In this document: piece after piece, positions 10,261 through 24,939 of the stretch
Position numbering within the stretch: position 1 is the stretch's first letter
Layout of the letters: every line of letters starts with the position of its first letter
From: Sphingomonadaceae bacterium
Lineage (GTDB): Bacteria; Pseudomonadota; Alphaproteobacteria; Sphingomonadales; Sphingomonadaceae
Reading direction: 5' to 3'
NCBI GenBank assembly: GCA_965284665.1
Contig: OZ260108.1
Span: 1,450,588 to 1,514,587, forward strand
Length of the DNA stretch: 64,000 nucleotides
Made by a program: the position numbers and the translations under genes
Notes under the pieces: model-generated
The model's input: only the letters and a program-made list of their open reading frames with translations
The model's database searches: none
What the model was told of the DNA's origin: nothing

Positions 10261-11346
10261 ATGGGCAAGCTGAGCGGCATCACCGTTGTCGACCTGACGC
10301 AGTTCCTGCCGGGCCCGGCAATGACCGTAATGATGGCCGATCAGGGCGCGCGGGTGATCAAGATCGAGCCGCGCGGCGGTGAGCCGGTGCGGAGCCAGGC
10401 GCCGTTCGAGAATGGCCAGTCGGTCTGGTTTGCCAATCTCAACCGCGGCAAGGAAAGCCGGGTGCTTGACCTCAAGAGCGACGAGGGCAAGGCGGCGCTG
10501 CGGGCGCTGATCGCCGAGGCCGATGTCTTTGTCGAAGGCTTCCGACCCGGCGTGATGAAGCGGCTGGGGTTCGATTACCCGGCGGTCCGCGCGCTCAATC
10601 GGCGCATCGTTTACTGCTCGATCTCCGCCTTCGGACAAGAGGGTGAGCTGGCGCACCATCCGGCGCATGACATGGCGGTCCAGGCACTCGCCGGGTTCAT
10701 GAGTGTTAATGACGGGTCAGACGGCACGCCAGTGGTACCGGGCGCGCCCAGCGCCGATCTTGCGGCCGGGCTGACCGCGCTTTCGGCCGTGCTGATGGCG
10801 CTGATCGGGCGCGAGCAGACGGGCGAGGGTGACTATATCGATGTCGCCATGTTCGACAGCCTGCTGCCGTGGTGCGCGCATACCGCAGGCAGCGCTATCG
10901 CCGGCGGGCCATCGCCCAAGTCGAGCGAGCAGCGTTCGCTCGGCGGGGCGGGGTTCTACCAGGTCTACAAGACCAGCGACGGCCGCCACGTCGTGCTCGG
11001 CGGGCGCGAGATCAAGTTCGCCACCAACCTGCTGACGGCGCTGGGCCGACCGGATCTGATTGCCCTGGCCGAACAGGATGCGGGGCCCGTCCAGGCGCCG
11101 CTGATCGCCTTCCTGCGCGAAACCTTCCTCACCAGGACCCGCGACGAGTGGGTGGAGTGGTTCCACGACAAGGACGTGGCCTTTGCCCCGGTGCTCGATT
11201 TCCGCGAAGCGCTGGATGAGCCGCATGTCGCCCAGCGCGGCTTGCTGGTTGAGGCCGATGGCCGCCACCATATCGCCCCGCCGATCCGCTTTGCGGGTGA
11301 AGCGCCATGGCAACCTGGCCCGGTGCCCGAACTGGGCGAGGGTTAG
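10261..11346 (+). CDS. CoA-transferase family III (CaiB/BaiF), second paralog
   Basis: DLTQFLPGP, GARVIKIE, NRGKES, EGFRPGVM, HDMAVQALAG, ADLAAG. Confidence 0.93.
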   Translation: MGKLSGITVVDLTQFLPGPAMTVMMADQGARVIKIEPRGGEPVRSQAPFENGQSVWFANLNRGKESRVLDLKSDEGKAALRALIAEADVFVEGFRPGVMKRLGFDYPAVRALNRRIVYCSISAFGQEGELAHHPAHDMAVQALAGFMSVNDGSDGTPVVPGAPSADLAAGLTALSAVLMALIGREQTGEGDYIDVAMFDSLLPWCAHTAGSAIAGGPSPKSSEQRSLGGAGFYQVYKTSDGRHVVLGGREIKFATNLLTALGRPDLIALAEQDAGPVQAPLIAFLRETFLTRTRDEWVEWFHDKDVAFAPVLDFREALDEPHVAQRGLLVEADGRHHIAPPIRFAGEAPWQPGPVPELGEG

Positions 11347-11352
11347 GGGATG

Positions 11353-12096
11353 TCAGCCGTCGACGTCGATATGCATCGAGTAGGCGAAGCGGTCGCCGGG
11401 ATGGTGGCTGACCGAGATTTCGAAAACGCGGCCCTTGGGGTCGATATAGCAGCGCAGAATCCGCAGCACCGGGCTGCCGCGCTTCAGATCCAGCGCCTTG
11501 GCAATATCGGCGCTGGCGGCCACCGCCTGGATATCCTGGGTAACCTTGCCGACGCTGACGCCCGCGAGCTGCTCGATCTGGCTGAACAGCGTGCCCGCGC
11601 CCAGGTCCAGCTTGGCCACGGCGGCATCGACGCTTTCGTGGAAATAGGCATCGGTCGCGGCAATCGGCTGGCCGTCGAGCTGCGGACTGCGCACGCCGCG
11701 GAAGCAGGTCCAGGCGCCGCTGGTGTCCTCGGCAATCTGCTCGGAAATATCGCGCGGCAGATCGCCGCGGCCGCGCGGCTCGTAGGTCACGTGGGTATCA
11801 CGCGCGTACTGCAGGATTTCGCCCACGTTGGAGAGCGGCTGGTGCAGCGTGCCGCCGCGCGCCGAGGCCGGCTGGACCACCGTGCCCGAGCCGCGCTTGC
11901 GGGCAATCAGCCCTTCGTTCTGCAGCCGGCGCAGCGCCTCGCGAATGGTAAAGCGCGACACGCCATAGCGCTGGCACAGGTCGCTCTCGGTCGGAAACTG
12001 ATCGCGCGCGGAAAACTTGCCGGAGAGGATTTCGGCGCGCAGTTCCCCGGCAACTTGCAGATAGCGGGGGGCTTCACGCTCACGCGGAATGGTCAT
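11353..12096 (-). CDS. GntR family regulator, HutC subfamily (wHTH + UTRA)
   Basis: PRYLQVAGELRAEILSG...PTESDLCQRYGVSRFTIREALRRL plus C-terminal UTRA-like domain; likely start ATG 12096. Confidence 0.92.
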   Translation of the reverse strand: MTIPREREAPRYLQVAGELRAEILSGKFSARDQFPTESDLCQRYGVSRFTIREALRRLQNEGLIARKRGSGTVVQPASARGGTLHQPLSNVGEILQYARDTHVTYEPRGRGDLPRDISEQIAEDTSGAWTCFRGVRSPQLDGQPIAATDAYFHESVDAAVAKLDLGAGTLFSQIEQLAGVSVGKVTQDIQAVAASADIAKALDLKRGSPVLRILRCYIDPKGRVFEISVSHHPGDRFAYSMHIDVDG

Positions 12097-12140
12097 GCTG
12101 GCCTTCAATCCTTGCTCCCATCGGCTCCACGGGGGCGCCC

Positions 12141-13373
12141 ATGAGCGAGCCCCTGCTGGTCCAACTTGTCCGGACACTAGCGCGCCCGATCACGGAAAGC
12201 GATAGGGCGCGTGCGCGGCTCCACTTGCTGGACTGGCTCGCCTGTGTCGCGGGCGCGCGCCAGACGCAAGTGGCCAAGGTGCTGTATGAGGCCGACCTGG
12301 GCGGTGCGCGCCGGGCCGGTTGGCTGGGCGGCGTGCTGGAGATGGACGATGTCCACCGCGCCGCACTGCTCCATCCCGGGCCGGTTATCTGGGCTGCGGC
12401 GCTCGAGGCGGCGGGCGATGTCGATGCCGATCTGGACGCCGTGCTTGATGGCGCTGTGCGCGGCTATCAGGCGATGATCGCGATCGGCGCCAGCTTCGAT
12501 GCGCATCACTATGCCCACTATCATAACACCGCGACGGCGGGCTCGTTCGGTGCCGCTGCGGCAGCCGGATCGGTGCTGAGCCTGGACGAAGGGCAGATGG
12601 TTGCGGCGCTCAGCAATGCCGGGTCGACCACTGGCGGCCTCTGGCAGATGCGCCACGAGGCCGGGATGACCAAGCAATGGCACGTCGCCATGGCCGGGAA
12701 CAATGGCTACTTCGCCGCCTATATGGCCTCGCGAGGGCTCTCCGGTACGGCTTCGGTGCTGGACGGGCCGCAAGGCCTTTACGCGGCGACCTGCGATGCG
12801 CCGAAGCCGCTGGAGCTGGGTGAGGGCTGGCGCATTCACGAGGTCAGCTTCAAGCCTTGGGCGGCCTGTCGCCATGCCCACCCGGTGATCGACTGCGCGC
12901 TGGAATTGCGGGCGCAGGGCAAGCTTGTCGCGCCGTTCCGGGTCGAGACTTATGCCGATGCCATCGCCTTCTGCGACCGGCCCAACCCGGTAACCGAGGT
13001 CGATGCCAAGTTCAGCCTGCAGCATGCCGTGGCCGTGATCGCCAGTGGACGCGAGGCGAAGCCGGAAGACTTTACGCCTGAGGCGATTGCCGAGCTGGCC
13101 CCGCTGCGGGCACAGGTTTCGATTTCGGAAGACAAAGCAATTACAGCGCGTTACCCAGCACACTTCGGTGCACGTGTGAATGGACTGGAACTGATCGACA
13201 CTCGCGGCGATCCGGAGCGGCCGGTGGATGAGGCGGCCATTCGGCACAAGATGCATACCCTTGCTGCCTGGGGCGGGCTGCCCGCCGATGAAGCCGAACG
13301 CGCCTGCGCCTTGGCGCTGGATGGCGATGATGCAGCGGCGATCGCTGACCTGCTGGAGGACTGGCTGGGATGA
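12141..13373 (+). CDS. MmgE/PrpD family protein
   Basis: LLDWLAC, LEMDDVH...HPGPV, KPWAACRHAH, AKFSLQ motifs. Confidence 0.9.
   Translation: MSEPLLVQLVRTLARPITESDRARARLHLLDWLACVAGARQTQVAKVLYEADLGGARRAGWLGGVLEMDDVHRAALLHPGPVIWAAALEAAGDVDADLDAVLDGAVRGYQAMIAIGASFDAHHYAHYHNTATAGSFGAAAAAGSVLSLDEGQMVAALSNAGSTTGGLWQMRHEAGMTKQWHVAMAGNNGYFAAYMASRGLSGTASVLDGPQGLYAATCDAPKPLELGEGWRIHEVSFKPWAACRHAHPVIDCALELRAQGKLVAPFRVETYADAIAFCDRPNPVTEVDAKFSLQHAVAVIASGREAKPEDFTPEAIAELAPLRAQVSISEDKAITARYPAHFGARVNGLELIDTRGDPERPVDEAAIRHKMHTLAAWGGLPADEAERACALALDGDDAAAIADLLEDWLG
12166..12177. promoter_or_regulatory. Second copy of the operator (TTGTCCGGACAC), inside the 5' end of the mmgE/prpD CDS and ~70 bp upstream of gntR
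   Basis: 11/12 match to the 6442-6453 palindrome. Confidence 0.55.
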
Positions 13374-13396
13374 ACCTCTTCACCCACCAACTCCAT

Positions 13397-13484
13397 CGTC
13401 GGCCCGTGCTTGACACGGGCCTTGGCTGTTCTTCGCGCAGCGGCGCAGGAAGAAGCCCAGCCCCGTGTCAAGCACGGGGTGACG
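13397..13484. repeat. CGTC-type REP palindrome dimer
   Basis: CGTCGGCCCGTGCTTGACACGGGCC...GCCCCGTGTCAAGCACGGGGTGACG; inverted arms; same unit at 23521-23604. Confidence 0.85.
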
Positions 13485-13500
13485 GAAGGTGGGTAGGGCG

Positions 13501-14778
13501 GTGACTCCCACGCAAGCCATTCTGCAATTTGCTGCCAAGCCTCATGAGCTGCCCGGGACTGTCCGCGCCGATGCGGTGCGATTGCTGGGCGATACCCTGG
13601 CAGTCGGCGCAGCGGGGACGACCGCGCCGGGGGCCGAAGCCATCCTGGCGGCGGCGCGGGCGATGGGCAGCGGCGCCGATGCCCGCCTGATCGGCACGGC
13701 CGAACGCTTGCCCGCACCGGGGGCGGCCTTCGTCAACGGCTATCGGATCCACTGCCTGGAATGGGACGCGGTCCACGAACCGGCCGTGGTTCACGCCATG
13801 AGCGTCGTGACCGCAGCCCTTGGCGCAGCGATTGACCGCAAGGGCGGCTGCGATCCCGAACACGCGCTGGTGGCGCTCGCCATCGGCGTTGATGTCGCTT
13901 CGGGCCTCGGCATTGCCGCGGACTCGGCGCTCAGTTTCTTCCGTCCGGCCACGGCCGGGGTGATCGGGGCAGCGCTGGCCGTGGCGCGGATCGATGGTGC
14001 ACCGCTGGAGCATGCGCTGGGCCTGGCCTATTCGAGCGCAGCCGGGACGATGCAGGCGCACGTCGAAGGCTCGATCACCCTGCCATTCCAGATCGCCAAT
14101 GCCGCCCGCGCGGCGGTGACTGCCAGCGATCTGGCCAAGGCCGGCTTCACCGCGCCGCTCGATCCGCTGGAGGGGCCGTTCGGGTACTTCAAGCTGATCG
14201 ATCAGGGCGACCTGTCGCGCTATACCCGCGAGCTTGGTCAGGTCTGGCGGATTGCCGAGATCAGCACCAAGCCGTTCCCGTCGGGCCGGGCCAGCCATGC
14301 GGCGCTGGGGGCCTTGCAGGCCTTGGCAGGGCGGGGCGTCGAGCGGATCGAACTCGCCTGTCCCCCGCTGATCCACCGTCTGGTCGGGCGGCCTTACAAG
14401 TCTGACATGACGCCTGCTTATGCGAGGCTGTGCCTGCCGTTCCTGGCGGCGCTGATGCTCACCGACGGCCGGATCGACCCGCGCCGCTTCACGGCGGAAA
14501 ACTTCGCCGATCCGGCGCTCGCGGCGCTGGCCGGCAAGGTCGCGCTGGTGGCGGACGGCAATGCCGATCCCAACGCCCTTTTCCCGCAGGAACTGCGCGT
14601 CACGGTGGGCGGCGCCACGCAGACCATCGCCGTGCCGCACACGCTGGGCAGCCCCGATGCGCCGCTTTCGCCGGCCCAGACCCAGGCAAAGCTTGATTTC
14701 GCCCGTGAACTTGCGCCGGCCGGACACGACCCGCGCCTGTTCACCGATCCCCTGGCCTATTTCACGGACCCGACATGA
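13501..14778 (+). CDS. MmgE/PrpD family protein, second divergent paralog
   Basis: LLGDTLAVGAAG, LEWDAVHEPAVVH, KPFPSGRASH; likely GTG start 13501 (ORF opens at 13489). Confidence 0.9.
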   Translation: MTPTQAILQFAAKPHELPGTVRADAVRLLGDTLAVGAAGTTAPGAEAILAAARAMGSGADARLIGTAERLPAPGAAFVNGYRIHCLEWDAVHEPAVVHAMSVVTAALGAAIDRKGGCDPEHALVALAIGVDVASGLGIAADSALSFFRPATAGVIGAALAVARIDGAPLEHALGLAYSSAAGTMQAHVEGSITLPFQIANAARAAVTASDLAKAGFTAPLDPLEGPFGYFKLIDQGDLSRYTRELGQVWRIAEISTKPFPSGRASHAALGALQALAGRGVERIELACPPLIHRLVGRPYKSDMTPAYARLCLPFLAALMLTDGRIDPRRFTAENFADPALAALAGKVALVADGNADPNALFPQELRVTVGGATQTIAVPHTLGSPDAPLSPAQTQAKLDFARELAPAGHDPRLFTDPLAYFTDPT

Positions 14779-16133
14779 GTTTCCCGACTTACTTCGAAGC
14801 CTTCGACATCAAGCAGATGCTGGCCGATTACCCGGTCGGGAATGCCTTTACCGCGCGCTATCGCAATATCAGCCGGGATGAGATCTTCGCGATCCAGGAT
14901 GCCCAGTTCCGGCGGCTGATGCAGCGCGGCTGGCAGATCCCGTTCTACCAGCGCCTGTGGGGCGCGCAGGGGATCGAGCCAGGCGACATCATGGGCCTCG
15001 CCGACATCACCAAGCTGCCGGTCTATGACAAGTCGGACCTGATGGCCTCGGTCAACGAGCACCCGCCCTATGGCGATTTCGACGGGCGTGGCGATACGCC
15101 GGTGGTGTTCCACACCACCAGCGGCACCACTGGCCGACCACAACCGCTGATGTTCGGGCCCAAGGGGCGCGAGGTGACCAACCTGCTGGTCGGGCGGATG
15201 TACCGCTGGATGGGGCTGAAGCCGGAAGACGTGGTCCATTCGGTCTATGGCCACGGCATGATCAACGGCGGGCATTACATCCGCGAGGCGGTGACGCACT
15301 TCACCAATTCGCTGTTCCTGTCCGCCGGGACGGGGATCGAAACACGCTCGGTCAACCAGGTGAACCTGCTGGCGGACTTCGGGGTGACGGTGATGGTCGG
15401 CTTCGTCGATTACATCAGGAAGCTGGCCGAAGTTGCTGAAGCGGAGCAGCTTTTTGACCGGATCAAGCTGCGGATGATCATCGGCCACCTTGGCACCGAA
15501 GACCGCGCCGCGACCGAAGCGGCCTGGCACGGCGCCAAGGCCTATGACTGGTACGGGGTTGGCGATACCGGCTCGATCGCCGGCGAGGGGCCTGACCGCG
15601 ACGGGCTCTATGTCTGGGAAGATGCGCAGTACCTCGAGCTGCTCGATATCGAGAGCGGCACGCCGGTGGCCAGGGGAGAGACCGGGGACATGGTCGTAAC
15701 CTGCCTGTTCAAGGACGACATCGCCCCCTGCATCCGCTTCAACACCCACGACATCACCCATGAGCTCGATGGGCGGGGCGAGCTGGGCTTCAAGCGGATC
15801 GCCGGTTTCAAGGGCCGCAGCGACAACATGGTCAAGCTGCGCGGGATCAACCTGTTCCCCCACGCCATCGCCGCGCTGATCGAGAACCGGCCCGACCTGA
15901 CCGGTGAATATGTCTGCCACCTGCGCCGCGATGCCGCGACCCAGCGCGACGACATGGTGGTGACGATCGAAAGCCGCGGCGGCAGCAACGCGGGCGAACT
16001 GGCCGAAGTGCTGCGCCGGGGCCTGGGCGTGGAAGTGGCGGTTCAGCTCTGCGCGCCGGGCGAAACGGCCGCCGCAACCCAGATTGATACCCGCCAGAAG
16101 CCGATCCGCCTGATCGACGAGCGCGGTGTGTAA
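14775..16133 (+). CDS. Phenylacetate-CoA ligase (PaaK)-like acyl-CoA ligase
   Basis: P-loop HTTSGTTGRP, YGVGD, GRSDNMVKLRGINLFP. Confidence 0.88.
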   Translation: MSFPTYFEAFDIKQMLADYPVGNAFTARYRNISRDEIFAIQDAQFRRLMQRGWQIPFYQRLWGAQGIEPGDIMGLADITKLPVYDKSDLMASVNEHPPYGDFDGRGDTPVVFHTTSGTTGRPQPLMFGPKGREVTNLLVGRMYRWMGLKPEDVVHSVYGHGMINGGHYIREAVTHFTNSLFLSAGTGIETRSVNQVNLLADFGVTVMVGFVDYIRKLAEVAEAEQLFDRIKLRMIIGHLGTEDRAATEAAWHGAKAYDWYGVGDTGSIAGEGPDRDGLYVWEDAQYLELLDIESGTPVARGETGDMVVTCLFKDDIAPCIRFNTHDITHELDGRGELGFKRIAGFKGRSDNMVKLRGINLFPHAIAALIENRPDLTGEYVCHLRRDAATQRDDMVVTIESRGGSNAGELAEVLRRGLGVEVAVQLCAPGETAAATQIDTRQKPIRLIDERGV

Positions 16134-17290
16134 TGTCGGACCGCTGGGGCGCCTTCGTCGATCTCGATCCTGACGCCCGGGGCGGCGAGGGGCCGCTGGC
16201 GGGGCTGACCGTGGGGGTGAAGTCCAACATCATGGTCAAGGGCCTGCCCTGGACCGGCGGAATGGGCCTCTACCGTGACCGGATCGCCAGCCGCGATGCC
16301 GAAGTGGTCACCCGCCTGCGCACCGCCGGGGCGGCGATCCTGGGCACGGTCAACATGCACGAGGCGGCGCTGGGGGCCCATACCGACAATGCCTTCTACG
16401 GCCGCACGCACAATCCGCACCGGCATGACTATACCCCCGGGGGCTCGTCCGGCGGCAGCGGCGCGGCGGTCGCGGCGGGGCTGTGCGACCTGGCCTTGGG
16501 TACCGATACAATGGGTTCGGTTCGGATCCCGGCGGCCTATTGCGGGGTCTATGGTCTTAAGCCGACAAATGGCGCGATCAGCGAGGATGGCCTCGCCTTT
16601 TTGGAGCCCAGCCTCGACTGCATCGGACCGCTCGCCGTCAGCCTCGATGTGCTGGAACAAGCCTGGCCGATCCTGGCCACCGATCCGGGCCATGCGGTCA
16701 CGTTCACGCGCGCCTTCGTGCTGGGTCGCCAAGGCGAAGTTGAGGTTCAGCCTGCCGTCACGGCCGGCTTCGAAGCTGCGCTGCGCGCTCTACCGCTGAC
16801 GCCCACAACGCTCGACTTGCCCGACAGCCTGACCGATATCCGCATGGCCGGACTTGTTGCGGCAGGGCAGTGGTTGATCGCCGATCTCGGCCCCGAATAC
16901 CGCGAGGACAATCCCGGCCTGTCGGACGAGCTCAAGTTCATCCTCAAGATCACCGCCGGGATGGAGCAGCGACCCGCAGTGCTGGCCCGCACCCGCACCG
17001 CCTTGCGCGAGGCGCTGGGCAACGATGCCGTGGTGATCATGCCGACCGCGCCGCAAGTGGCCTTTCCCCATGGCACCCGCGCCCCGTCCAACCAGGCGGA
17101 CTTTACCTGCCTGGCCAACGTCGCCGGGCTGCCCGCGCTGGCGCTGCCGTCAGGGAGGAGCGAGGATGGCCTGCCGGTCAGCGTCCAGCTGGTCGGCCCG
17201 CCGGGCAGCGAGCCGGGGCTGATAGCGCTGGCCCGCCAGCTAGATAACCAGTTGCAAGCTTACCGCCGTCCGCCAAACATCGAGATCTGA
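16133..17290 (+). CDS. Amidase signature family enzyme
   Basis: GVKSN (Lys), PGGSSGGSGAAVAAG, GTDTMGSVRIPAA (Ser-cisSer-Lys triad). Confidence 0.93.
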   Translation: MSDRWGAFVDLDPDARGGEGPLAGLTVGVKSNIMVKGLPWTGGMGLYRDRIASRDAEVVTRLRTAGAAILGTVNMHEAALGAHTDNAFYGRTHNPHRHDYTPGGSSGGSGAAVAAGLCDLALGTDTMGSVRIPAAYCGVYGLKPTNGAISEDGLAFLEPSLDCIGPLAVSLDVLEQAWPILATDPGHAVTFTRAFVLGRQGEVEVQPAVTAGFEAALRALPLTPTTLDLPDSLTDIRMAGLVAAGQWLIADLGPEYREDNPGLSDELKFILKITAGMEQRPAVLARTRTALREALGNDAVVIMPTAPQVAFPHGTRAPSNQADFTCLANVAGLPALALPSGRSEDGLPVSVQLVGPPGSEPGLIALARQLDNQLQAYRRPPNIEI

Positions 17291-17303
17291 AGGGAGAGAA
17301 ACC

Positions 17304-17609
17304 ATGCGCATCGTCTGCCTGTTCAACCTGAAGGAAGGCGCCAGCCGCGAAGCCTATGAAGCCTGGGCGCGGGGGACCGACATTCCCGGCGTCAATGCGC
17401 TCGGCTCGGTCCGCGGCTTCACTGTCCACCGCGCCACCGGCCTGTTCGGTTCGGATGCCAAGCCGCCCTATGATTACATCGAGGTGATCGACATTCACGG
17501 CATGGATGCCTTCGTGGCCGATGTCTCCGATCCCGAATTCCAGAAGGTAGCCGCCGGGTTTGGCGAATTTACCGACAACCCGACCTTCATCCTGACCGAG
17601 GACCTCTGA
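17304..17609 (+). CDS. REDY-like protein HapK / EthD-like dimeric alpha-beta barrel
   Basis: LFNLK...YEAWARGTDIPGVNAL.SV, PPYDYIEVIDI pattern, 101 aa; family recognised from memory. Confidence 0.72.
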   Translation: MRIVCLFNLKEGASREAYEAWARGTDIPGVNALGSVRGFTVHRATGLFGSDAKPPYDYIEVIDIHGMDAFVADVSDPEFQKVAAGFGEFTDNPTFILTEDL

Positions 17610-17611
17610 AA

Positions 17612-18409
17612 ATGGGCCGGTTCGCGGGCAAGACCATCGTCGTTACCGGCTCGGGCAAGGAAAAGGGCCTGGGCCAGGGCATCTTGCGCCGCTTTGCGGA
17701 CGAGGGCGCGAACTGCGTCGTCTCGGACCTGCGGATCGATGCCGAGGCCGAGGGCGTTGCCGATGACCTGCGCGCGCGCGGCGTGAAGGTGGCGACGATT
17801 GCCTGCGACGTGTCCGATCCGGCCCAGTGCCAGGCCCTGGTCGATCAGGCGGTCGCGGCGCTGGGTTCGGTCGATGTCTTCGTCAACAATGCCGGGATCG
17901 GGTTCATGATGAAGCCGATGCTGGAGGTCGATCCGAAAGACTGGGCGACGGTCATCGCGGTGAACCTCTCAGGCGCGTTCTATTGCACCCAGGCGGCGGC
18001 CAAGGCGATGATTGCCGCTGGCAAGGGCGGGCGGATCATCAACATCGCCAGCCAGGCGGCCAAGACCGGCTTCCCGCACCTGCCGGCCTATGTGAGTTCG
18101 AAGCACGGCTTGGTCGGCCTGACCCGCGCGACGGCTGTGGAGCTGGGTGCGCACGGCATCACCGTCAATGCCGTCTGCCCGAACCACGTCACCACTGGCC
18201 TTGGCGCGCAGCAGAACGAGTATTTCTCCAAGCTGCTCGGGTTCGACACGGTCGAGGCCTACCTCAAGAATATGGCCGCCAAGAACCCGATGGGCCGCCC
18301 GGGCCTGCCGAGCGATACGGCCGCCGCTTGCGCCTGGCTCGCCAGCGATGACGCCTTTTACGTCACCGGCGAAGCGCTGAACGTGAGCGGCGGCGAGGAG
18401 ATGCATTGA
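17612..18409 (+). CDS. SDR family NAD(P)-dependent oxidoreductase
   Basis: TGSGKEKGLG, NNAG, NIAS, YVSSK (YxxxK). Confidence 0.94.
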   Translation: MGRFAGKTIVVTGSGKEKGLGQGILRRFADEGANCVVSDLRIDAEAEGVADDLRARGVKVATIACDVSDPAQCQALVDQAVAALGSVDVFVNNAGIGFMMKPMLEVDPKDWATVIAVNLSGAFYCTQAAAKAMIAAGKGGRIINIASQAAKTGFPHLPAYVSSKHGLVGLTRATAVELGAHGITVNAVCPNHVTTGLGAQQNEYFSKLLGFDTVEAYLKNMAAKNPMGRPGLPSDTAAACAWLASDDAFYVTGEALNVSGGEEMH

Positions 18410-19275
18410 TGCGAGAGGAACGGATGGACCTGCCCGGCGGCGCCAGGATGGCGCTGTCGGTCGTGGTCAATGTCGAGGAAGGCAGCGAACAGACCATCGC
18501 CCGCGGCGACAAGGGGATGGAGCCAGTCGACGAGCTGGGCATCTTCATCAAGGCCCCGATCCGCAACTATGCGAACGAGAGCAATTACCTCTACGGGATC
18601 AAGGCGGGCGCGCCGCGCGTGGTCAAGCTGCTGAAAGCTTTCGACATCATGGCGAGCTGGACGGTGGCGGCACTGTCGCTCGAGAACCATCCGGAGATTG
18701 CCGAGGCCATCGTCGAGCTGGGGCACGAGCCGGTCAGCCACGGCTGGCGCTGGGTCCATCAGTTCCGTCTGAACGAGGAGCAGGAGCGCGAGTTCATCCG
18801 CAAGGCCGTGGCGAGCATCGAAAAGACCTGTGGCGTGCGCCCCTATGGCTGGCTGTCGCGCTATATGCTGACCGACAACACCCGCCGCCTGCTGATCGAG
18901 GAGGGCTTCTCCTACCACATGGACGATTACAGCGGCGACGTGCCGTTCTGGGATCGCGAGACGGTAACCGGCAAGCCGATGGTGATTGTGCCCTACCAGC
19001 TCGACAACAATGACATGAAGATGTGGACCGATCCGGCCATGACGCCTGAGCAGTGGTTGGCCTATGCCAAGCGCAACTTCGACCAGGTCTATCGCGAAGG
19101 CGTGGAAGGCAATCCCAAGATGATGAGCCTGGGGCTACACCTGCGGATAATCGGCCGGCCGGGACGGATCTGGGCGCTGGAGGAGTTCTTCAAGCACGTC
19201 CGCCAGCACGACGGGGTCTGGGTGACGACGCGCAAGGCAATTGCCGATCACTATGCCCAGACGGTGCCGGCATGA
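18409..19275 (+). CDS. Polysaccharide deacetylase fold, PuuE/allantoinase-like amidohydrolase
   Basis: VVVNVEEG, HGWRW, GWLSR, GLHLRIIGRPGR match the PuuE-type pattern. Confidence 0.85.
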   Translation: MREERMDLPGGARMALSVVVNVEEGSEQTIARGDKGMEPVDELGIFIKAPIRNYANESNYLYGIKAGAPRVVKLLKAFDIMASWTVAALSLENHPEIAEAIVELGHEPVSHGWRWVHQFRLNEEQEREFIRKAVASIEKTCGVRPYGWLSRYMLTDNTRRLLIEEGFSYHMDDYSGDVPFWDRETVTGKPMVIVPYQLDNNDMKMWTDPAMTPEQWLAYAKRNFDQVYREGVEGNPKMMSLGLHLRIIGRPGRIWALEEFFKHVRQHDGVWVTTRKAIADHYAQTVPA

Positions 19276-20024
19276 CGCTGCGCCTCACCACTGGCCAACA
19301 CGTCGCCCGGCTGTTCATCGACCGGGCGGACAAGCGCAACGCCTTCAACCAGGCGATGTGGGAGCAGCTGCCCGAACTGGTGTTGCAGGCCATGGCCGAT
19401 CCGGCGGTGCGGGTGCTGACGATCGAATCTGCCCATCCCGGCGTGTTCTGCGCCGGGGCGGATATTGCCGAGCTGCTCGCCAACAAGGACGATGCCCAGT
19501 GGCGATCGGCCAATCAGGCCGCAATCAACCGCGCCCAGCACGTGCTGGCCCGCGCGGATAAGCCAGTGATCGCCTATATCGATGGCGATTGCGTCGGCGG
19601 TGGCTGTGGGATTGCCCTGGCGGCCGACATCCGCGTTGCGACGCCGCGCGCGCGGCTGGGGATCACCCCGGCCAAGCTGGGGCTGGTCTATCCGCTGCAT
19701 GACACCAAGCTGCTGGTCGATCTGGTCGGTCCGGGGCATGCCAAGCGCATGCTCTATACCGGGATGCTGCTGGATGCGCATGAAGCGCTGCGGATCGGGC
19801 TGGTCGATGAGATCGCCGATAGCCCCGGCCATCTCGAAGACGTGATCGCCGCCAATTCGCTCCATTCGACCAGCGGCATGAAGCGGTTCGTGCGCCGCGT
19901 GCTCGATGGCCAGGCCGATGACGATGCGGAGACGCTGGAAGTGTTCGCGCAGGCCTTCACCGGGCCGGATTTCCTCGAAGGGACCAGCGCCTTCGTTGCC
20001 AAGCGCAAGCCGGAGTTCAAGTGA
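19272..20024 (+). CDS. Crotonase (enoyl-CoA hydratase/isomerase) superfamily, lacking the canonical Glu pair
   Basis: KRNAF, FCAGADI, GGGCGIALAAD, TPAKLGLVY, FVAKRKPEFK. Confidence 0.9.
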   Translation: MTLRLTTGQHVARLFIDRADKRNAFNQAMWEQLPELVLQAMADPAVRVLTIESAHPGVFCAGADIAELLANKDDAQWRSANQAAINRAQHVLARADKPVIAYIDGDCVGGGCGIALAADIRVATPRARLGITPAKLGLVYPLHDTKLLVDLVGPGHAKRMLYTGMLLDAHEALRIGLVDEIADSPGHLEDVIAANSLHSTSGMKRFVRRVLDGQADDDAETLEVFAQAFTGPDFLEGTSAFVAKRKPEFK

Positions 20025-20920
20025 TGGCCATTCCCCATGGAACGATCATGGGCGGGCTCTCAGTGGTGCCGGACGTGTCCGCTGCGCTCGCCGATTACCA
20101 GGGCGTGTTGCAGCTCGATCTGGTGCACGAAGGCCCGCTGCCGGCTGACCTCGCGGCGAGCTGGGGCTGTCCGGCCAGCGCCGGCGCGCGCCATGCCGTG
20201 TTGCGGCCCAAAAGCGGCAACCCGTGCTGGTTCCGGCTGGTCGAACAGCCCGACCATCCCGAGTTCAAGCCGACCACCACCTTTGGCTGGGGCGCCTTCG
20301 AGTGCACGGTCGAGGACGTGTTCGGCTGGCCCGACCGGCTTCAGGGCAGTGGCTTCACCATCGTGGGTGAACCGCGCGAGCTTCCGGGGATGGATGCCTT
20401 CATCCCAATGCAGGTGCTCGGCACCGGGCGCGAGATGGTTTACCTGAACCAGGTCTTCAACGACATGGCGAACGTCGATCTGCCGCGCGCGCAGTCGATC
20501 ACCGACCGGATCTTCATCGTCATTCTCGGCACGCCGAGCCGGGCGGAATCTTGCCGCTGGTACCAGGAGCGGCTGGGGCTGGAGCCGGTCGATACCTTTG
20601 AACTGCCCTATGCCATGATCAATGACGCCTTCGGTCTGCCGGCGGACTATATCTCCGCGCTGACCATGGTTCAGGCCGGGCGGCTGCCGATTGTCGAGGT
20701 GGACGATTACCCTGAGCAGGCGCGGCCGCGTGCCCGCCATGCCGGGATGCTGCCGCCAGGCAATGCGCTGGTGACGCTGGCGATGCGCGATCTGGCTGCC
20801 TGCCAGGTGGACTGGATTGCGCCCCCGGTGGCCCGCGACGGCGCGCTTTATGAAGGCCGCCGTGCGGGCACCTGCCTGGGCTATGCCGGGGAACTGATCG
20901 AACTGGTTGAGGTGGGTTGA
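20021..20920 (+). CDS. VOC/glyoxalase-like two-domain protein
   Basis: Repeated beta-alpha-beta-beta-beta units, SCRWYQERLG, terminal ELIELVE; translationally coupled. Confidence 0.6.
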   Translation: MMAIPHGTIMGGLSVVPDVSAALADYQGVLQLDLVHEGPLPADLAASWGCPASAGARHAVLRPKSGNPCWFRLVEQPDHPEFKPTTTFGWGAFECTVEDVFGWPDRLQGSGFTIVGEPRELPGMDAFIPMQVLGTGREMVYLNQVFNDMANVDLPRAQSITDRIFIVILGTPSRAESCRWYQERLGLEPVDTFELPYAMINDAFGLPADYISALTMVQAGRLPIVEVDDYPEQARPRARHAGMLPPGNALVTLAMRDLAACQVDWIAPPVARDGALYEGRRAGTCLGYAGELIELVEVG

Positions 20921-21228
20921 TGGCGCTCTATTGCATTCACGCGATTGATGGACCGGATGGTGCGGAAATCCGCCTGCGGCTGATCGGGGCGCACCTTGCC
21001 CATGTCGAGGCGCATATTGATCGCTACTTCGTCGCCGGACCGCTCAAGAATGCAGAGGGGCAGACCATCGGTTCGATGCTGGTGGTCGAGGCGGCGGATG
21101 AGGCCGATGCCCGCGCATTCCTCGATGCGGACCCCTATGCCGGGGCGGGGTTGTGGAGCCAGATCCACGTCGCCGCCTTTGCCGCCGTGGCGGGCACCAG
21201 CGTGGGTGGGGCGGCCTGGAAGAAGTAG
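20920..21228 (+). CDS. YciI family protein
   Basis: R...HLAHV, AGPL, GSMLVVEA, DPY motif. Confidence 0.88.
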   Translation: MALYCIHAIDGPDGAEIRLRLIGAHLAHVEAHIDRYFVAGPLKNAEGQTIGSMLVVEAADEADARAFLDADPYAGAGLWSQIHVAAFAAVAGTSVGGAAWKK

Positions 21229-23630: not shown

Positions 23631-24089
23631 TTAAGGCGCCGGCTTAACATCCGGCGTGGTGTTGTCCATGTCGCGCCACAGCAGCCAGCCTTTGCCCTTG
23701 CGCTTGTAGATCAGCATCGAGCGGCCGGCGCTCTTGATGGCGGGTTTGCCGGGGAGCTGCGCGGTCATCCAGTACTTGGCAACAAGGATCCCCAGCTTGC
23801 CCTCAATCACGATGTGCTCGGGCTCGAAACGGAAGGCGATGGTTGCGCCCTGATCCTTGAAGCGGCGCAGGTAGGCGATGATCGCATCGGCGCCCTTCGC
23901 GGCCGGGGCCTTGTCGGTCATCAGCCAGGCGTCGTCGGTATAGAGCTTGCGCAGCGCCGCCCAGTCGCCGGCGGAATAGGCCGCGTTCCACAGGTCGCCC
24001 TGCGCGGCAATTTCGGCCTGCTGGTCGCGCGCCAGGGCGGCGGTTGGCAGCAGCGCCAGCGCGAGGGCGCATAACAGAGTTCGGATCAT
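23631..24089 (-). CDS. Secreted NTF2/SnoaL-like (DUF4440/YybH) protein
   Basis: Signal peptide; WNAAYSAGDWAAL..LYTDDA, GRSMLIYKR; RBS AGGAG before ATG 24089. Confidence 0.8.
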   Translation of the reverse strand: MIRTLLCALALALLPTAALARDQQAEIAAQGDLWNAAYSAGDWAALRKLYTDDAWLMTDKAPAAKGADAIIAYLRRFKDQGATIAFRFEPEHIVIEGKLGILVAKYWMTAQLPGKPAIKSAGRSMLIYKRKGKGWLLWRDMDNTTPDVKPAP

Positions 24090-24130
24090 CGCAGCGCTCC
24101 TCAGGGGATCAGACGCGCAGCATTGCAAAG

Positions 24131-24142
24131 ATGTCCGGACAA
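24131..24142. promoter_or_regulatory. Third copy of the operator (ATGTCCGGACAA) in the divergent 24089/24175 promoter
   Basis: 14-bp identity TGTCCGGACAAATC with 6443-6456; preceded by TTGCAA (-35-like). Confidence 0.65.
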
Positions 24143-24174
24143 ATCCATAGTCCTTGGCAGCTGAAGGACCTGTC

Positions 24175-24939
24175 ATGCGCTTTCTAGTGATTGCCGCCGC
24201 CTTGCTGGCAGCTATGCCCGTCGCGGCGGAAACACCGCTGCCCGACGCGCGGATGATTATTGCCGAAGCCGCTGAAGTGGCCGGGGGTGAGGCCTGGCTC
24301 AGCCCGGCCACCCTGCGGCTGGAAGGGCGGGCGGAGTTCTATGCGCCCAATCAGCCCGGCGTCATTCGCCGCGCCGAAAGCTATGTGATGTGGCGGGTGC
24401 TCGATCCGAACCGCACCGCGGCCCACGGGCCAGAAGGTAAGGTGCGGATTACGGCGCGCTCGGGCGGCAAGCTGCTGTTCGATGTCGGCTATGATGGAGA
24501 GACGACGTGGAACGAAAAGGGCGTGGTGCCCAAGGCCGAGGCCGATGCCTATTGGGCCGCCAACTTCGGCTTCGGGATCATCCGCATGGCGCTGAAGCAG
24601 GGCTTCAAGCTGGAGCGCGCGCCGGATCGGACGGTGGATGGCCACGCGCTCGACATGGTGCGGATCGTCGATCCCGGCGGGCAGGCCACGCTGTTCGGGA
24701 TCGACGTCAAGAGCCGCTATATCCGCTACATGGGTTTTGCCACGCCCCGCGGCTGGCACGAGCGGGTCTATGACGATTTCGTGTTCTTCCGCAGCCCGCG
24801 CTGGCTGCAGGCGCGCAGCGTCACGCTGTTCTACAACGGGGTACGGCAGAACACCGTCTATTGGGACAAGGCCGTGGTCGGCCAGCCGATCGATCCCGCC
24901 ACCTTCGCCATGCCCGCCAGCTATGGAGCAAAGCCATGA
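24175..24939 (+). CDS. Secreted hypothetical protein, possibly LolA/lipoprotein-sorting-like fold
   Basis: Signal peptide, AGGEAW motif, beta-rich; fold is an inference. Confidence 0.6.
   Translation: MRFLVIAAALLAAMPVAAETPLPDARMIIAEAAEVAGGEAWLSPATLRLEGRAEFYAPNQPGVIRRAESYVMWRVLDPNRTAAHGPEGKVRITARSGGKLLFDVGYDGETTWNEKGVVPKAEADAYWAANFGFGIIRMALKQGFKLERAPDRTVDGHALDMVRIVDPGGQATLFGIDVKSRYIRYMGFATPRGWHERVYDDFVFFRSPRWLQARSVTLFYNGVRQNTVYWDKAVVGQPIDPATFAMPASYGAKP

Follow-up and report, generated by a model that had tools for sequence, protein, structure and literature searches.

Gene content and layout of the locus

We analysed a 64,000-nucleotide stretch (the window) of the genome of a Sphingomonadaceae bacterium (contig OZ260108.1, positions 1,450,588 to 1,514,587), in which a plus-strand operon couples the genes for a PuuE-like hydrolase, an amidase-signature (AS) amidase and a PaaK-like ligase. 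The operon is part of a conserved gene island that most likely opens small, non-purine nitrogen-containing rings, removes their nitrogen and burns the branched diacid. An initial annotation, made from the DNA letters, had placed the three enzymes at 14775-19275 together with a short-chain dehydrogenase/reductase (SDR) and HapK. In this interval we found five intact, tightly coupled plus-strand genes, whose boundaries coincide exactly with these coordinates. Neighbouring genes among the five overlap by 1-4 nt or are separated by 2-13 nt, and all five bear the motifs expected for active enzymes, as predicted from sequence. The coupling into one operon therefore stands, but the operon is longer than had been annotated. 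Two MmgE/PrpD genes lie upstream and crotonase, VOC and YciI genes downstream, so that the complete operon comprises ten genes (12141-21228) behind a GntR/HutC operator. The features of this region are as follows.

11353-12177, minus strand: GntR/HutC-type repressor (Pfam GntR, helix-turn-helix, 74.7 bits; UTRA, effector domain, 69.2 bits), antisense between two plus-strand operons
12167-12176, no strand: operator palindrome TGTCCGGACA, heading the PrpD1-to-YciI operon
12141-13373, plus strand: MmgE/PrpD family protein 1 (PrpD1; Pfam MmgE_PrpD_N and MmgE_PrpD_C)
13489-14778, plus strand: MmgE/PrpD family protein 2 (PrpD2; assigned by Pfam)
14775-16133, plus strand: PaaK-like adenylating (acyl-CoA) ligase (AMP-binding and AMP-binding_C_2; TIGR02155, 160.8 bits)
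16133-17290, plus strand: amidase-signature amidase, compact, 385 amino acids (PF01425, 261 bits; cut-off 27)
17304-17609, plus strand: HapK/EthD-like protein, 101 amino acids (PF11639, 45.4 bits; cut-off 25)
17612-18409, plus strand: classical SDR oxidoreductase (adh_short_C2, 205 bits)
18409-19275, plus strand (frame also given from 18406; ATG at 18409): PuuE-like hydrolase of the 'GWLSRY' subfamily (TIGR03212, 248.1 bits)
19272-20024, plus strand: crotonase-family protein (ECH_1, 129.7 bits; PRK06127, 186 bits against a cut-off of 291)
20021-20920, plus strand: two-module VOC/glyoxalase-fold protein (PF00903, 30.5 bits)
20920-21228, plus strand: small YciI-like protein, encoded last in the operon (PF03795, 49 bits), overlapping the VOC stop codon by 1 nt

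The start codon of the crotonase gene, read directly, forms an ATGA overlap with the stop codon of the PuuE-like gene. A scan for promoters and terminators inside the operon returned nothing exceeding chance. Because the operator falls within the annotated 5′ end of PrpD1, the true start codon of this gene may lie more downstream.

A PuuE-like hydrolase with a predicted remodelled pocket

The PuuE-like protein aligned with the solved PuuE structure 3cl6 over nearly its full length (residues 9-288, E 3e-67) and matched the CE4 domain PF01522 at 42.1 bits, above the gathering score of 23.1. On TIGR03212, the model for allantoinase PuuE, its 248.1 bits remained under the curated cut-off of 424.6 bits, which no match anywhere in the whole genome reached. 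The databases that we consulted name the protein allantoinase, chitooligosaccharide deacetylase or polysaccharide deacetylase.

Where CE4 enzymes have an Asp-His-His metal triad the PuuE-like protein has Glu-His-Trp, plus the His and Arg of an HxR motif. Its residues Glu24, His112, Trp116, His245 and Arg247 align with Glu38, His127, Trp131, His263 and Arg265 of the imidase BpIH, and the catalytic Asn, Glu, His, Trp, His and Arg are all kept. These residues bear on the possibility that the enzyme hydrolyses a linear N-formyl or N-acyl amide rather than a ring, which would make it a deformylase or deacetylase comparable to CE4 enzymes or NicD. Such an activity would suit the CE4/polysaccharide-deacetylase domain, and VOC proteins of the island could be ring-cleaving dioxygenases that yield N-formyl amic acids. 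However, the replacement of the CE4 metal triad by the PuuE-type set (PMC11424739) speaks against a linear substrate, as does the fact that all characterised Glu-His-Trp enzymes are ring-openers, and we consider this activity improbable.

For the pocket comparison 37 sequences were aligned at the 17 residues that lie within 5 Å of the docked substrate in BpIH and are highly conserved across 35 allantoinases (PMC11424739). Eleven of the 17, including every catalytic one, were identical in the PuuE-like protein. The other six were altered, at BpIH positions Phe55, Leu56, Phe101, Tyr165, Gly167 and the residue following Arg168. In terms of motifs, SE(A/Q)FLSE shifts to EPV--DEL, PLT(V/I)F to (S/T)(W/Y)T and GWYTGR to GWLSRY. 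All six changes were invariant in 12/12 subfamily members, drawn from Sphingomonadales, from f15 (a second family of Alphaproteobacteria) and from G135, whose genome belongs to another class. The experimentally characterised PuuE of P. fluorescens (3cl6; Ramazzina et al. 2008 as cited in PMC11424739) has the same fold, length and metal-free catalytic set but bears the canonical motifs. Compared with it, the protein studied here has lost the FL pair with a two-residue deletion, has Thr in place of Phe and reads WLSRY for WYTGR; its genome also has no ureide pathway, and its gene has no uraD neighbour.

In a maximum-likelihood tree the PuuE-like subfamily was split from canonical PuuE by a long branch (support 99/95). 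As the groups were partly defined by their motifs beforehand, the tree is evidence of their separation, not an independent discovery of them. Relatives in 400 sampled Pseudomonadota genomes fell into two bands, with 4 genomes at 54-59% identity and all others at no more than 47%. By sequence, then, the protein is a member of a distinct subfamily of metal-independent PuuE ring amidohydrolases with a remodelled pocket; the evidence indicates that it is not a canonical allantoinase, a metal-dependent polysaccharide deacetylase or a chitooligosaccharide deacetylase.

In a third group of PuuE relatives (genomes G395, G290, G220 and G224) the motif GWYTGR reads GWYCRY, and the first pocket loop differs. 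Members of this group cluster with neither canonical PuuE nor the GWLSRY subfamily, and the tree does not unite them in one clade.

The genome lacks genes of the ureide pathway

No purine-catabolism genes were found within the operon. In the complete genome (a single 3.10-Mb contig, rated 100% complete) uricase, 5-hydroxyisourate (HIU) hydrolase and 2-oxo-4-hydroxy-4-carboxy-5-ureidoimidazoline (OHCU) decarboxylase had no match, while control genomes responded to these searches. The allantoicase profiles TIGR02961 and PF03561 drew no response from any control genome, so that for this enzyme the searches are uninformative. In all four genomes with canonical PuuE that we checked, the OHCU decarboxylase gene uraD lies 50-130 bp from PuuE (4/4). 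In contrast, the PuuE-like subfamily was never adjacent to purine genes in the loci examined, and the carrier G135 has no OHCU decarboxylase.

A divergent but genuine allantoinase could in principle sit in the operon by chance. Its strong alignment with P. fluorescens PuuE, the complete catalytic set and the name 'allantoinase' given to relatives in some databases are what such a proposal would expect. The score far under the TIGR03212 cut-off (248 vs 424.6 bits), the six subfamily-invariant pocket substitutions, the separate clade, the missing uricase, HIU hydrolase and OHCU decarboxylase and the lack of a uraD neighbour together indicate that the protein is not an allantoinase. The operon partners, conserved in five lineages, are moreover unconnected with ureides, and a genuine allantoinase is very improbable. 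The initial annotation had set the enzyme outside purine catabolism, naming an allantoinase or an unrelated polysaccharide deacetylase as the outcome that would overturn this; the score, the Glu-His-Trp set and the clade indicate neither of the two. Its further statement that purine genes are lacking holds for the operon and, for uricase, HIU hydrolase and OHCU decarboxylase, genome-wide.

Two conserved blocks under one operator

Gene neighbourhoods were compared by tblastn of the window proteins against 100-kb neighbourhoods of four distant carriers, supplemented by a few Pfam scans. Three blocks could be distinguished: block A (HapK-SDR-PuuE), block B (RipC-RipB-acyl-CoA dehydrogenase (ACAD)-CaiB-CaiB) and block C (PrpD1-PrpD2-PaaK-amidase). 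Block A is followed by block B in 4/4 of the distant carrier genomes. In family f15 block C lies a further 2-6 kb downstream of A-B, and in G135 it is on a separate contig from block A, with its own GntR gene. The order PrpD1-PrpD2-PaaK-amidase is invariant across five lineages. Of 41 Sphingomonadales loci, each 20 kb or longer, 39-41 kept the order CaiB1-CaiB2-(GntR)-PrpD1-PrpD2-PaaK-amidase-HapK-SDR-PuuE-ECH-VOC.

PaaK-like orthologues (at least 57% identity) and the PuuE-like subfamily occurred in exactly the same 5 of 401 genomes. Both unlinked loci of G135 are preceded by the same 10-bp palindrome, TGTCCGGACA. The conserved order, the identical phyletic pattern and the operator shared despite the lack of linkage tie the PuuE-like protein functionally to the amidase and the PaaK-like ligase. 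It is well supported that the three are functionally linked yet belong to two separable modules. Of the single module annotated at first, the link between the enzymes is thus retained; its unity is not, the two blocks lying on different contigs in G135. In that genome an isochorismatase-type amidase is found next to the HapK-SDR-PuuE block.

The RipC and RipB/Ich proteins of block B scored under the cut-offs of their models (NF038242, 227 vs 375 bits; NF038241, 225 vs 340 bits). From these scores they appear to be relatives of the named enzymes, probably acting on substrates with a different alkyl substituent.

Partner enzymes of the core operon

The PaaK-like ligase carries the P-loop TSGTTGRPQP and resembles solved PaaK structures (E 1e-44 to 1e-38) and 2-hydroxyisobutyryl-CoA synthetase. 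We rejected an assignment as phenylacetate-CoA ligase itself, since its TIGR02155 score of 160.8 bits is far under the cut-off of 646.3 and no paa genes lie nearby.

The amidase gene overlaps the stop codon of the ligase gene by 1 nt. Its product contains the Lys, cis-Ser and Ser motifs of the family (VGVKSN, GGSSGGS and TDTMGSVR). It matched PRK08310 at 219 bits against a cut-off of 391 and, among others, models of AtzE and allophanate hydrolase. We regard it as a candidate amic-acid ('half') amidase. An AS amidase is encoded in the same operon in 39/41 Sphingomonadales loci and within the same island or regulon in f15 and G135. Over the 41 loci the amidase diverges faster than its operon neighbours, with a median identity of 50% compared with 85% for the PuuE-like protein, 83% for the SDR and 81% for the PaaK-like ligase.

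An AlphaFold model of the HapK-like protein (pLDDT 95) adopts a dimeric alpha+beta-barrel fold. Its best match in the PDB is HapK (2jdj; 30% identity, TM-score 0.77), followed by 4-methylmuconolactone methylisomerase, OAC cyclase and SnoaB. The context of a prodiginine cluster was not found for the protein. Judging from the modelled fold, our guess is that it might be a cofactor-free isomerase or oxygenase that prepares the ring. The SDR gene lies between HapK and the PuuE-like gene in all five lineages. The solved structures nearest to PrpD1 are B. subtilis IRG1-like protein and iminodisuccinate (IDS) epimerase, and those nearest to PrpD2 are IDS epimerase and cis-aconitate decarboxylase.

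A proposed route from cyclic imides to CoA esters

The PuuE-type imidases BpIH and AfIH hydrolyse carbocyclic imides and have been used on 3-isobutylglutarimide (PMC11424739). They share their catalytic machinery with the PuuE-like protein, in which 11/17 residues within 5 Å of the docked imide are identical. BpIH differs in having the canonical pocket residues, and it shares 61% identity with P. fluorescens PuuE. As a canonical PuuE-type protein it may therefore hydrolyse imides as a side activity; for the subfamily described here, unlike BpIH, the genomic context suggests an imide-like native substrate.

A second parallel is the end of nicotinate degradation in A. nidulans, where the SDR HxnW converts a hydroxylactam to an imide, the imidase HxnM opens it to an amic acid and the AS amidase HxnN releases ammonia (PMC9304392). 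The logic of an SDR, an imidase of polysaccharide-deacetylase fold and an amidase is the same. The closest structure to HxnM is, however, HpPgdA, with PuuE more distant (PMC9304392), and its ring is six-membered, giving 2-hydroxyglutarate. The operon studied here adds to the trio a ligase, two MmgE/PrpD proteins, a HapK-like protein and a CoA-dependent downstream route. The same sequence, from lactam through succinimide to succinamate, is reported for 2-pyrrolidinone metabolism (PMC6517487). With BpIH/AfIH and HxnM as precedents, and from gene context, we propose the PuuE-like protein as a cyclic imide hydrolase (EC 3.5.2.16); the SDR, by analogy with HxnW, would oxidise a hydroxylactam to the imide.

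For the acid side of the route the relevant comparison is the itaconate/methylsuccinate cluster (P. aeruginosa PA0878-PA0883 and C. necator). It likewise has a CitE/RipC-type lyase, a MaoC/Ich hydratase, an ACAD, a family III CoA-transferase, an MmgE/PrpD protein and a VOC protein. The MmgE/PrpD protein of that cluster is an (S)-(R) isomerase of free methylsuccinate and its ACAD a methylsuccinyl-C4-CoA dehydrogenase, and the regiochemistry of the CoA ester matters there (PMC12290011). All known MmgE/PrpD substrates have a common 1,4-dicarboxylate C4 backbone (PMC12290011). In contrast to the known cluster, which is without them, ring hydrolases, amidases and a ligase are coupled here; the transferases number two, as do the MmgE/PrpD paralogues, which have diverged deeply.

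The reading we favour, to which we give somewhat better than even chances, is that the operon forms the nitrogen-removing arm of a regulon and that a five-membered imide substituted at C3/C4 is converted through an amic acid into a CoA pathway. The ring, the amic acid, the deamidation and the CoA ester are all suggested by family membership and context. In a first step the HapK-like barrel and the SDR would turn a lactam or hydroxylactam into a cyclic imide, of which the PuuE-like enzyme would then cleave one C-N bond to give the amic acid. The ring would most likely be five-membered, a succinimide or maleimide substituted at C3/C4, because MmgE/PrpD, RipB-type and CitE/RipC-type enzymes use C4 1,4-dicarboxylate backbones. 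Alkylmaleate-hydratase-like and methylisocitrate-lyase-like enzymes of the island provide supporting context for a C4 diacid. Third, the PaaK-like ligase would thioesterify the sole free carboxylate of the amic acid, so that the residual amide may act as a regiochemical handle setting which end takes CoA. The amidase would liberate ammonia in the fourth step. Gene order and this regiochemical argument suggest that the ligase could act before the amidase; the 1-nt overlap of the two genes fits the handle idea without proving a ligase-first order. The two MmgE/PrpD proteins would, fifth, epimerise the substituted C2 and C3 centres, since two divergent paralogues would fit two stereocentres. Finally, the product would feed the RipC-RipB-ACAD-CaiB module, a CoA pathway of the methylsuccinate type.

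A comparable chemistry is said to operate in Blastobacter sp. A17p-4 (Ogawa, Soong and Shimizu, 1996-2000), in which an imidase and a half-amidase reportedly convert an imide to a half-amide and on to a dicarboxylate, the same chemistry as proposed here. The imidase of that strain is reportedly a metal enzyme. We know of no gene cluster defined for the Blastobacter pathway, and of no CoA ligase, MmgE/PrpD protein or branched-diacid module belonging to it.

Several considerations weigh against the proposed route. Each of its chemical steps rests on family membership and context, and the role of the HapK-like protein is guessed from a modelled fold. An ATP-dependent ligase seems redundant beside two family III CoA-transferases, unless the amide serves as a handle. 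The low conservation of the amidase (median 50% vs 81-85%) is odd for an obligatory step, and in G135 the isochorismatase-type amidase is nearer to the HapK-SDR-PuuE block than the AS amidase is. The several TonB-dependent receptors of the regulon suggest a primary substrate bigger than a simple imide. Lastly, the native substrate of PuuE is a hydantoin, which leaves room for a 5-substituted hydantoin.

A non-purine hydantoin of this kind would be opened to an N-carbamoyl acid, from which the amidase or a nitrilase-type hydrolase would remove the carbamoyl group. Beyond the hydantoin-ring activity of the characterised homologue PuuE, the matches of the amidase to AtzE and allophanate-hydrolase models point this way, together with a CN_hydrolase and an Asp/Glu/hydantoin-racemase-superfamily (Amdase-like) protein encoded in the island. 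However, the CN_hydrolase matched no NCBIfam carbamoylase model at E 1e-15, and the downstream enzymes serve di- and tricarboxylates and CoA esters, not amino acids. The pocket positions altered in the subfamily are also the very ones that are invariant in canonical PuuE. We judge a hydantoin substrate to be unlikely.

The parallel of the SDR, imidase and amidase with HxnW, HxnM and HxnN raises the alternative of a six-membered, pyridine-derived glutarimide or hydroxypiperidinedione, with the operon as a bacterial counterpart of the fungal trio leading to a glutarate-type diacid. BpIH, a PuuE-type enzyme, takes glutarimides; CaiB1 has succinate-glutarate CoA-transferase as its best NCBIfam match, and the top matches of the ACAD include glutaryl-CoA dehydrogenase. 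Two FAD aromatic-type hydroxylases are also encoded in the island, as is a hydrolase of the isochorismatase family, to which the maleamate amidase NicF belongs. Set against this, HxnM and CIH are structurally nearest to HpPgdA and more distant from PuuE, and RipC-type lyases, RipB/Ich hydratases and MmgE/PrpD proteins use C4-backbone substrates of the malyl-, citramalyl- and methylsuccinyl-type. No molybdenum hydroxylase or NicX-type dioxygenase was found among the annotated genes in the scanned part of the island. A six-membered ring thus appears distinctly unlikely, and a five-membered imide remains our preferred substrate.

A single operator marks a 107-kb island

The palindrome TGTCCGGACA occurs in 11 exact copies in the genome, compared with 3.4 copies expected genome-wide from composition. 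All 11 lie between C1:1367883 and 1474719, within 107 kb. Three of them are in the window (6443, 12167 and 24132) and the other eight upstream of it, almost all just before operon starts. The same 10-mer precedes PrpD1, RipC or HapK in four other genomes, and GntR orthologues adjoin PrpD genes in G266 and G135.

The operator-linked operons encode three TonB-dependent receptors and MFS transporters. Their enzymes include a nitrilase-type hydrolase (the CN_hydrolase), a VAO-type oxidase, an SSADH-like aldehyde dehydrogenase, the two FAD hydroxylases, an HMG-CoA-lyase-like enzyme, a LeuC-like (alkylmaleate/alkylmalate hydratase) subunit and an additional CaiB, besides methyltransferases and several proteins without a family. 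NCBIfam gave no specific name to the isochorismatase or to the nitrilase-type hydrolase. For most of these genes the f15 and G135 islands contain orthologues; those of the two-module VOC protein in f15 share 37-39% identity with it.

Three more PuuE-superfamily hydrolases are encoded outside the window, at C1:1376929-1379395 and 1405317-1406291. Two lie in tandem after an isochorismatase-type hydrolase and one beside a PrpB-like lyase; these genes, too, are part of operator-linked operons. All three keep the Glu and the first His but have lost the Trp, and one is also without the second His. Each of the four distant carriers has orthologues (36-73% identity) of the tandem pair and of the isochorismatase gene, whereas for the third hydrolase the matches there were weak (31%) and at paralogue level.

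Downstream of operator 24132, at 24154-24939 on the plus strand, a 261-residue protein without a Pfam family is encoded. The ESM Atlas relates it to clusters of LolA-like, Tat-signal periplasmic carriers, and orthologues at 41-43% identity lie beside the VOC gene in f15. The three operator-linked TonB-dependent receptors and this LolA-like carrier suggest a bulky, hydrophobic parent compound.

These data are best explained by a large catabolic regulon, controlled by a GntR/HutC-type repressor and without a studied counterpart, in which the operon serves as the nitrogen-removing arm. The label 'upper pathway' given to the module in the initial annotation may therefore be wrong, as the operon is one arm of something much larger.

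Tetrapyrrole fragments as candidate substrates

We tentatively consider, as an outside chance, that the regulon supplies a so far missing bacterial route by which monopyrrole fragments of tetrapyrroles (chlorophylls, bilins and haem) are mineralised. Such fragments, of which methyl-ethyl-maleimide and hematinic acid imide are examples, are 3,4-dialkyl and carboxyethyl derivatives of maleimides, succinimides and hydroxylactams. The four PuuE-superfamily hydrolases would then serve different rings and three kinds of amidase would strip the nitrogen. Just as conjecturally, dialkyl-maleates, dialkyl-succinates and methyl-homoaconitate-like triacids would be the true substrates of the MmgE/PrpD, LeuC-like, PrpB-like and RipBC enzymes.

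Besides the bulky parent compound suggested above, a few hints point this way. The HapK family is otherwise known from clusters for tripyrroles, the prodiginines. In G266 a CpeT/CpcT-family gene (bilin-lyase family, DUF1001; 10798-11415 on the plus strand of locus L038) lies directly after the PuuE-like gene and is followed by genes for a small VOC protein and a CMD-family protein. No CpeT/CpcT-like gene was found within 10 kb of the operon in the 41 Sphingomonadales loci, nor by tblastn in the genome studied here, and as a pointer to tetrapyrroles the gene is a weak hint. The carriers known so far are Sphingomonadales of surface waters, and several come from lake, river or bloom metagenomes or from cyanobacterial aggregates. 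Cultured strains among them include Sphingorhabdus contaminans KCTC 32445, Erythrobacter tepidarius DSM 10594, Qipengyuania sp. DGS5-3 and Sandarakinorhabdus cyanobacteriorum TH057. Recycling of the cell's own bacteriochlorophyll is unlikely here, as the genome is without reaction-centre L/M genes. Our search of the literature found no gene-level work on bacterial catabolism of maleimides, hematinic acid or cyclic imides, only chemistry, geochemistry and biocatalysis. If true, the tetrapyrrole origin would provide an environmental source of methylsuccinate-type acids, whose origin was left open previously (PMC12290011).

What the locus adds

New here at the level of the hydrolase are a pocket signature by which the subfamily can be told from PuuE, the contrast in uraD adjacency and the genome-level lack of a ureide pathway. 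At the level of the island they are the two-block structure with identical phyletic pattern and shared operator, the clustering of 11/11 operator copies and the argument from C4 backbones for a five-membered imide. The signature (EPV-DEL, (S/T)(W/Y)T and GWLSRY) can be used to correct annotation. The single-operator island recurs in two classes of Pseudomonadota and is common in freshwater and marine Sphingomonadales. Identifying the substrate would add a nitrogen- and carbon-yielding pathway for cyclic imides or lactams and could explain the origin of environmental branched C5-C7 diacids; the pathway would also supply new stereoselective imidases, amidases and epimerases for biocatalysis.

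Other features of the window and island

A plus-strand open reading frame (ORF) of 264 codons (11350-12144) begins 4 nt past the stop codon of CaiB2 and ends in an ATGA overlap with the start of PrpD1. It spans the gap between the two plus-strand operons, opposite the GntR gene, and was detectable by tblastn in 35/41 Sphingomonadales loci. We rejected it as an enzyme gene and treated it as a shadow of the regulator gene, given its position opposite GntR and its lack of a Pfam or NCBIfam family; its conservation may merely reflect the GntR gene on the other strand.

The island also encodes three methyltransferase paralogues, each some 400 residues long and with an unassigned N-terminal half (C1:1367942-1369141, 1380368-1381555 and 1424575-1425792), an unusual content for a catabolic regulon. 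Between an S46 peptidase gene and operator 24132 lies a SnoaL/DUF4440-like ORF (23631-24311, minus strand), part of which lies opposite the beginning of the LolA-like ORF.

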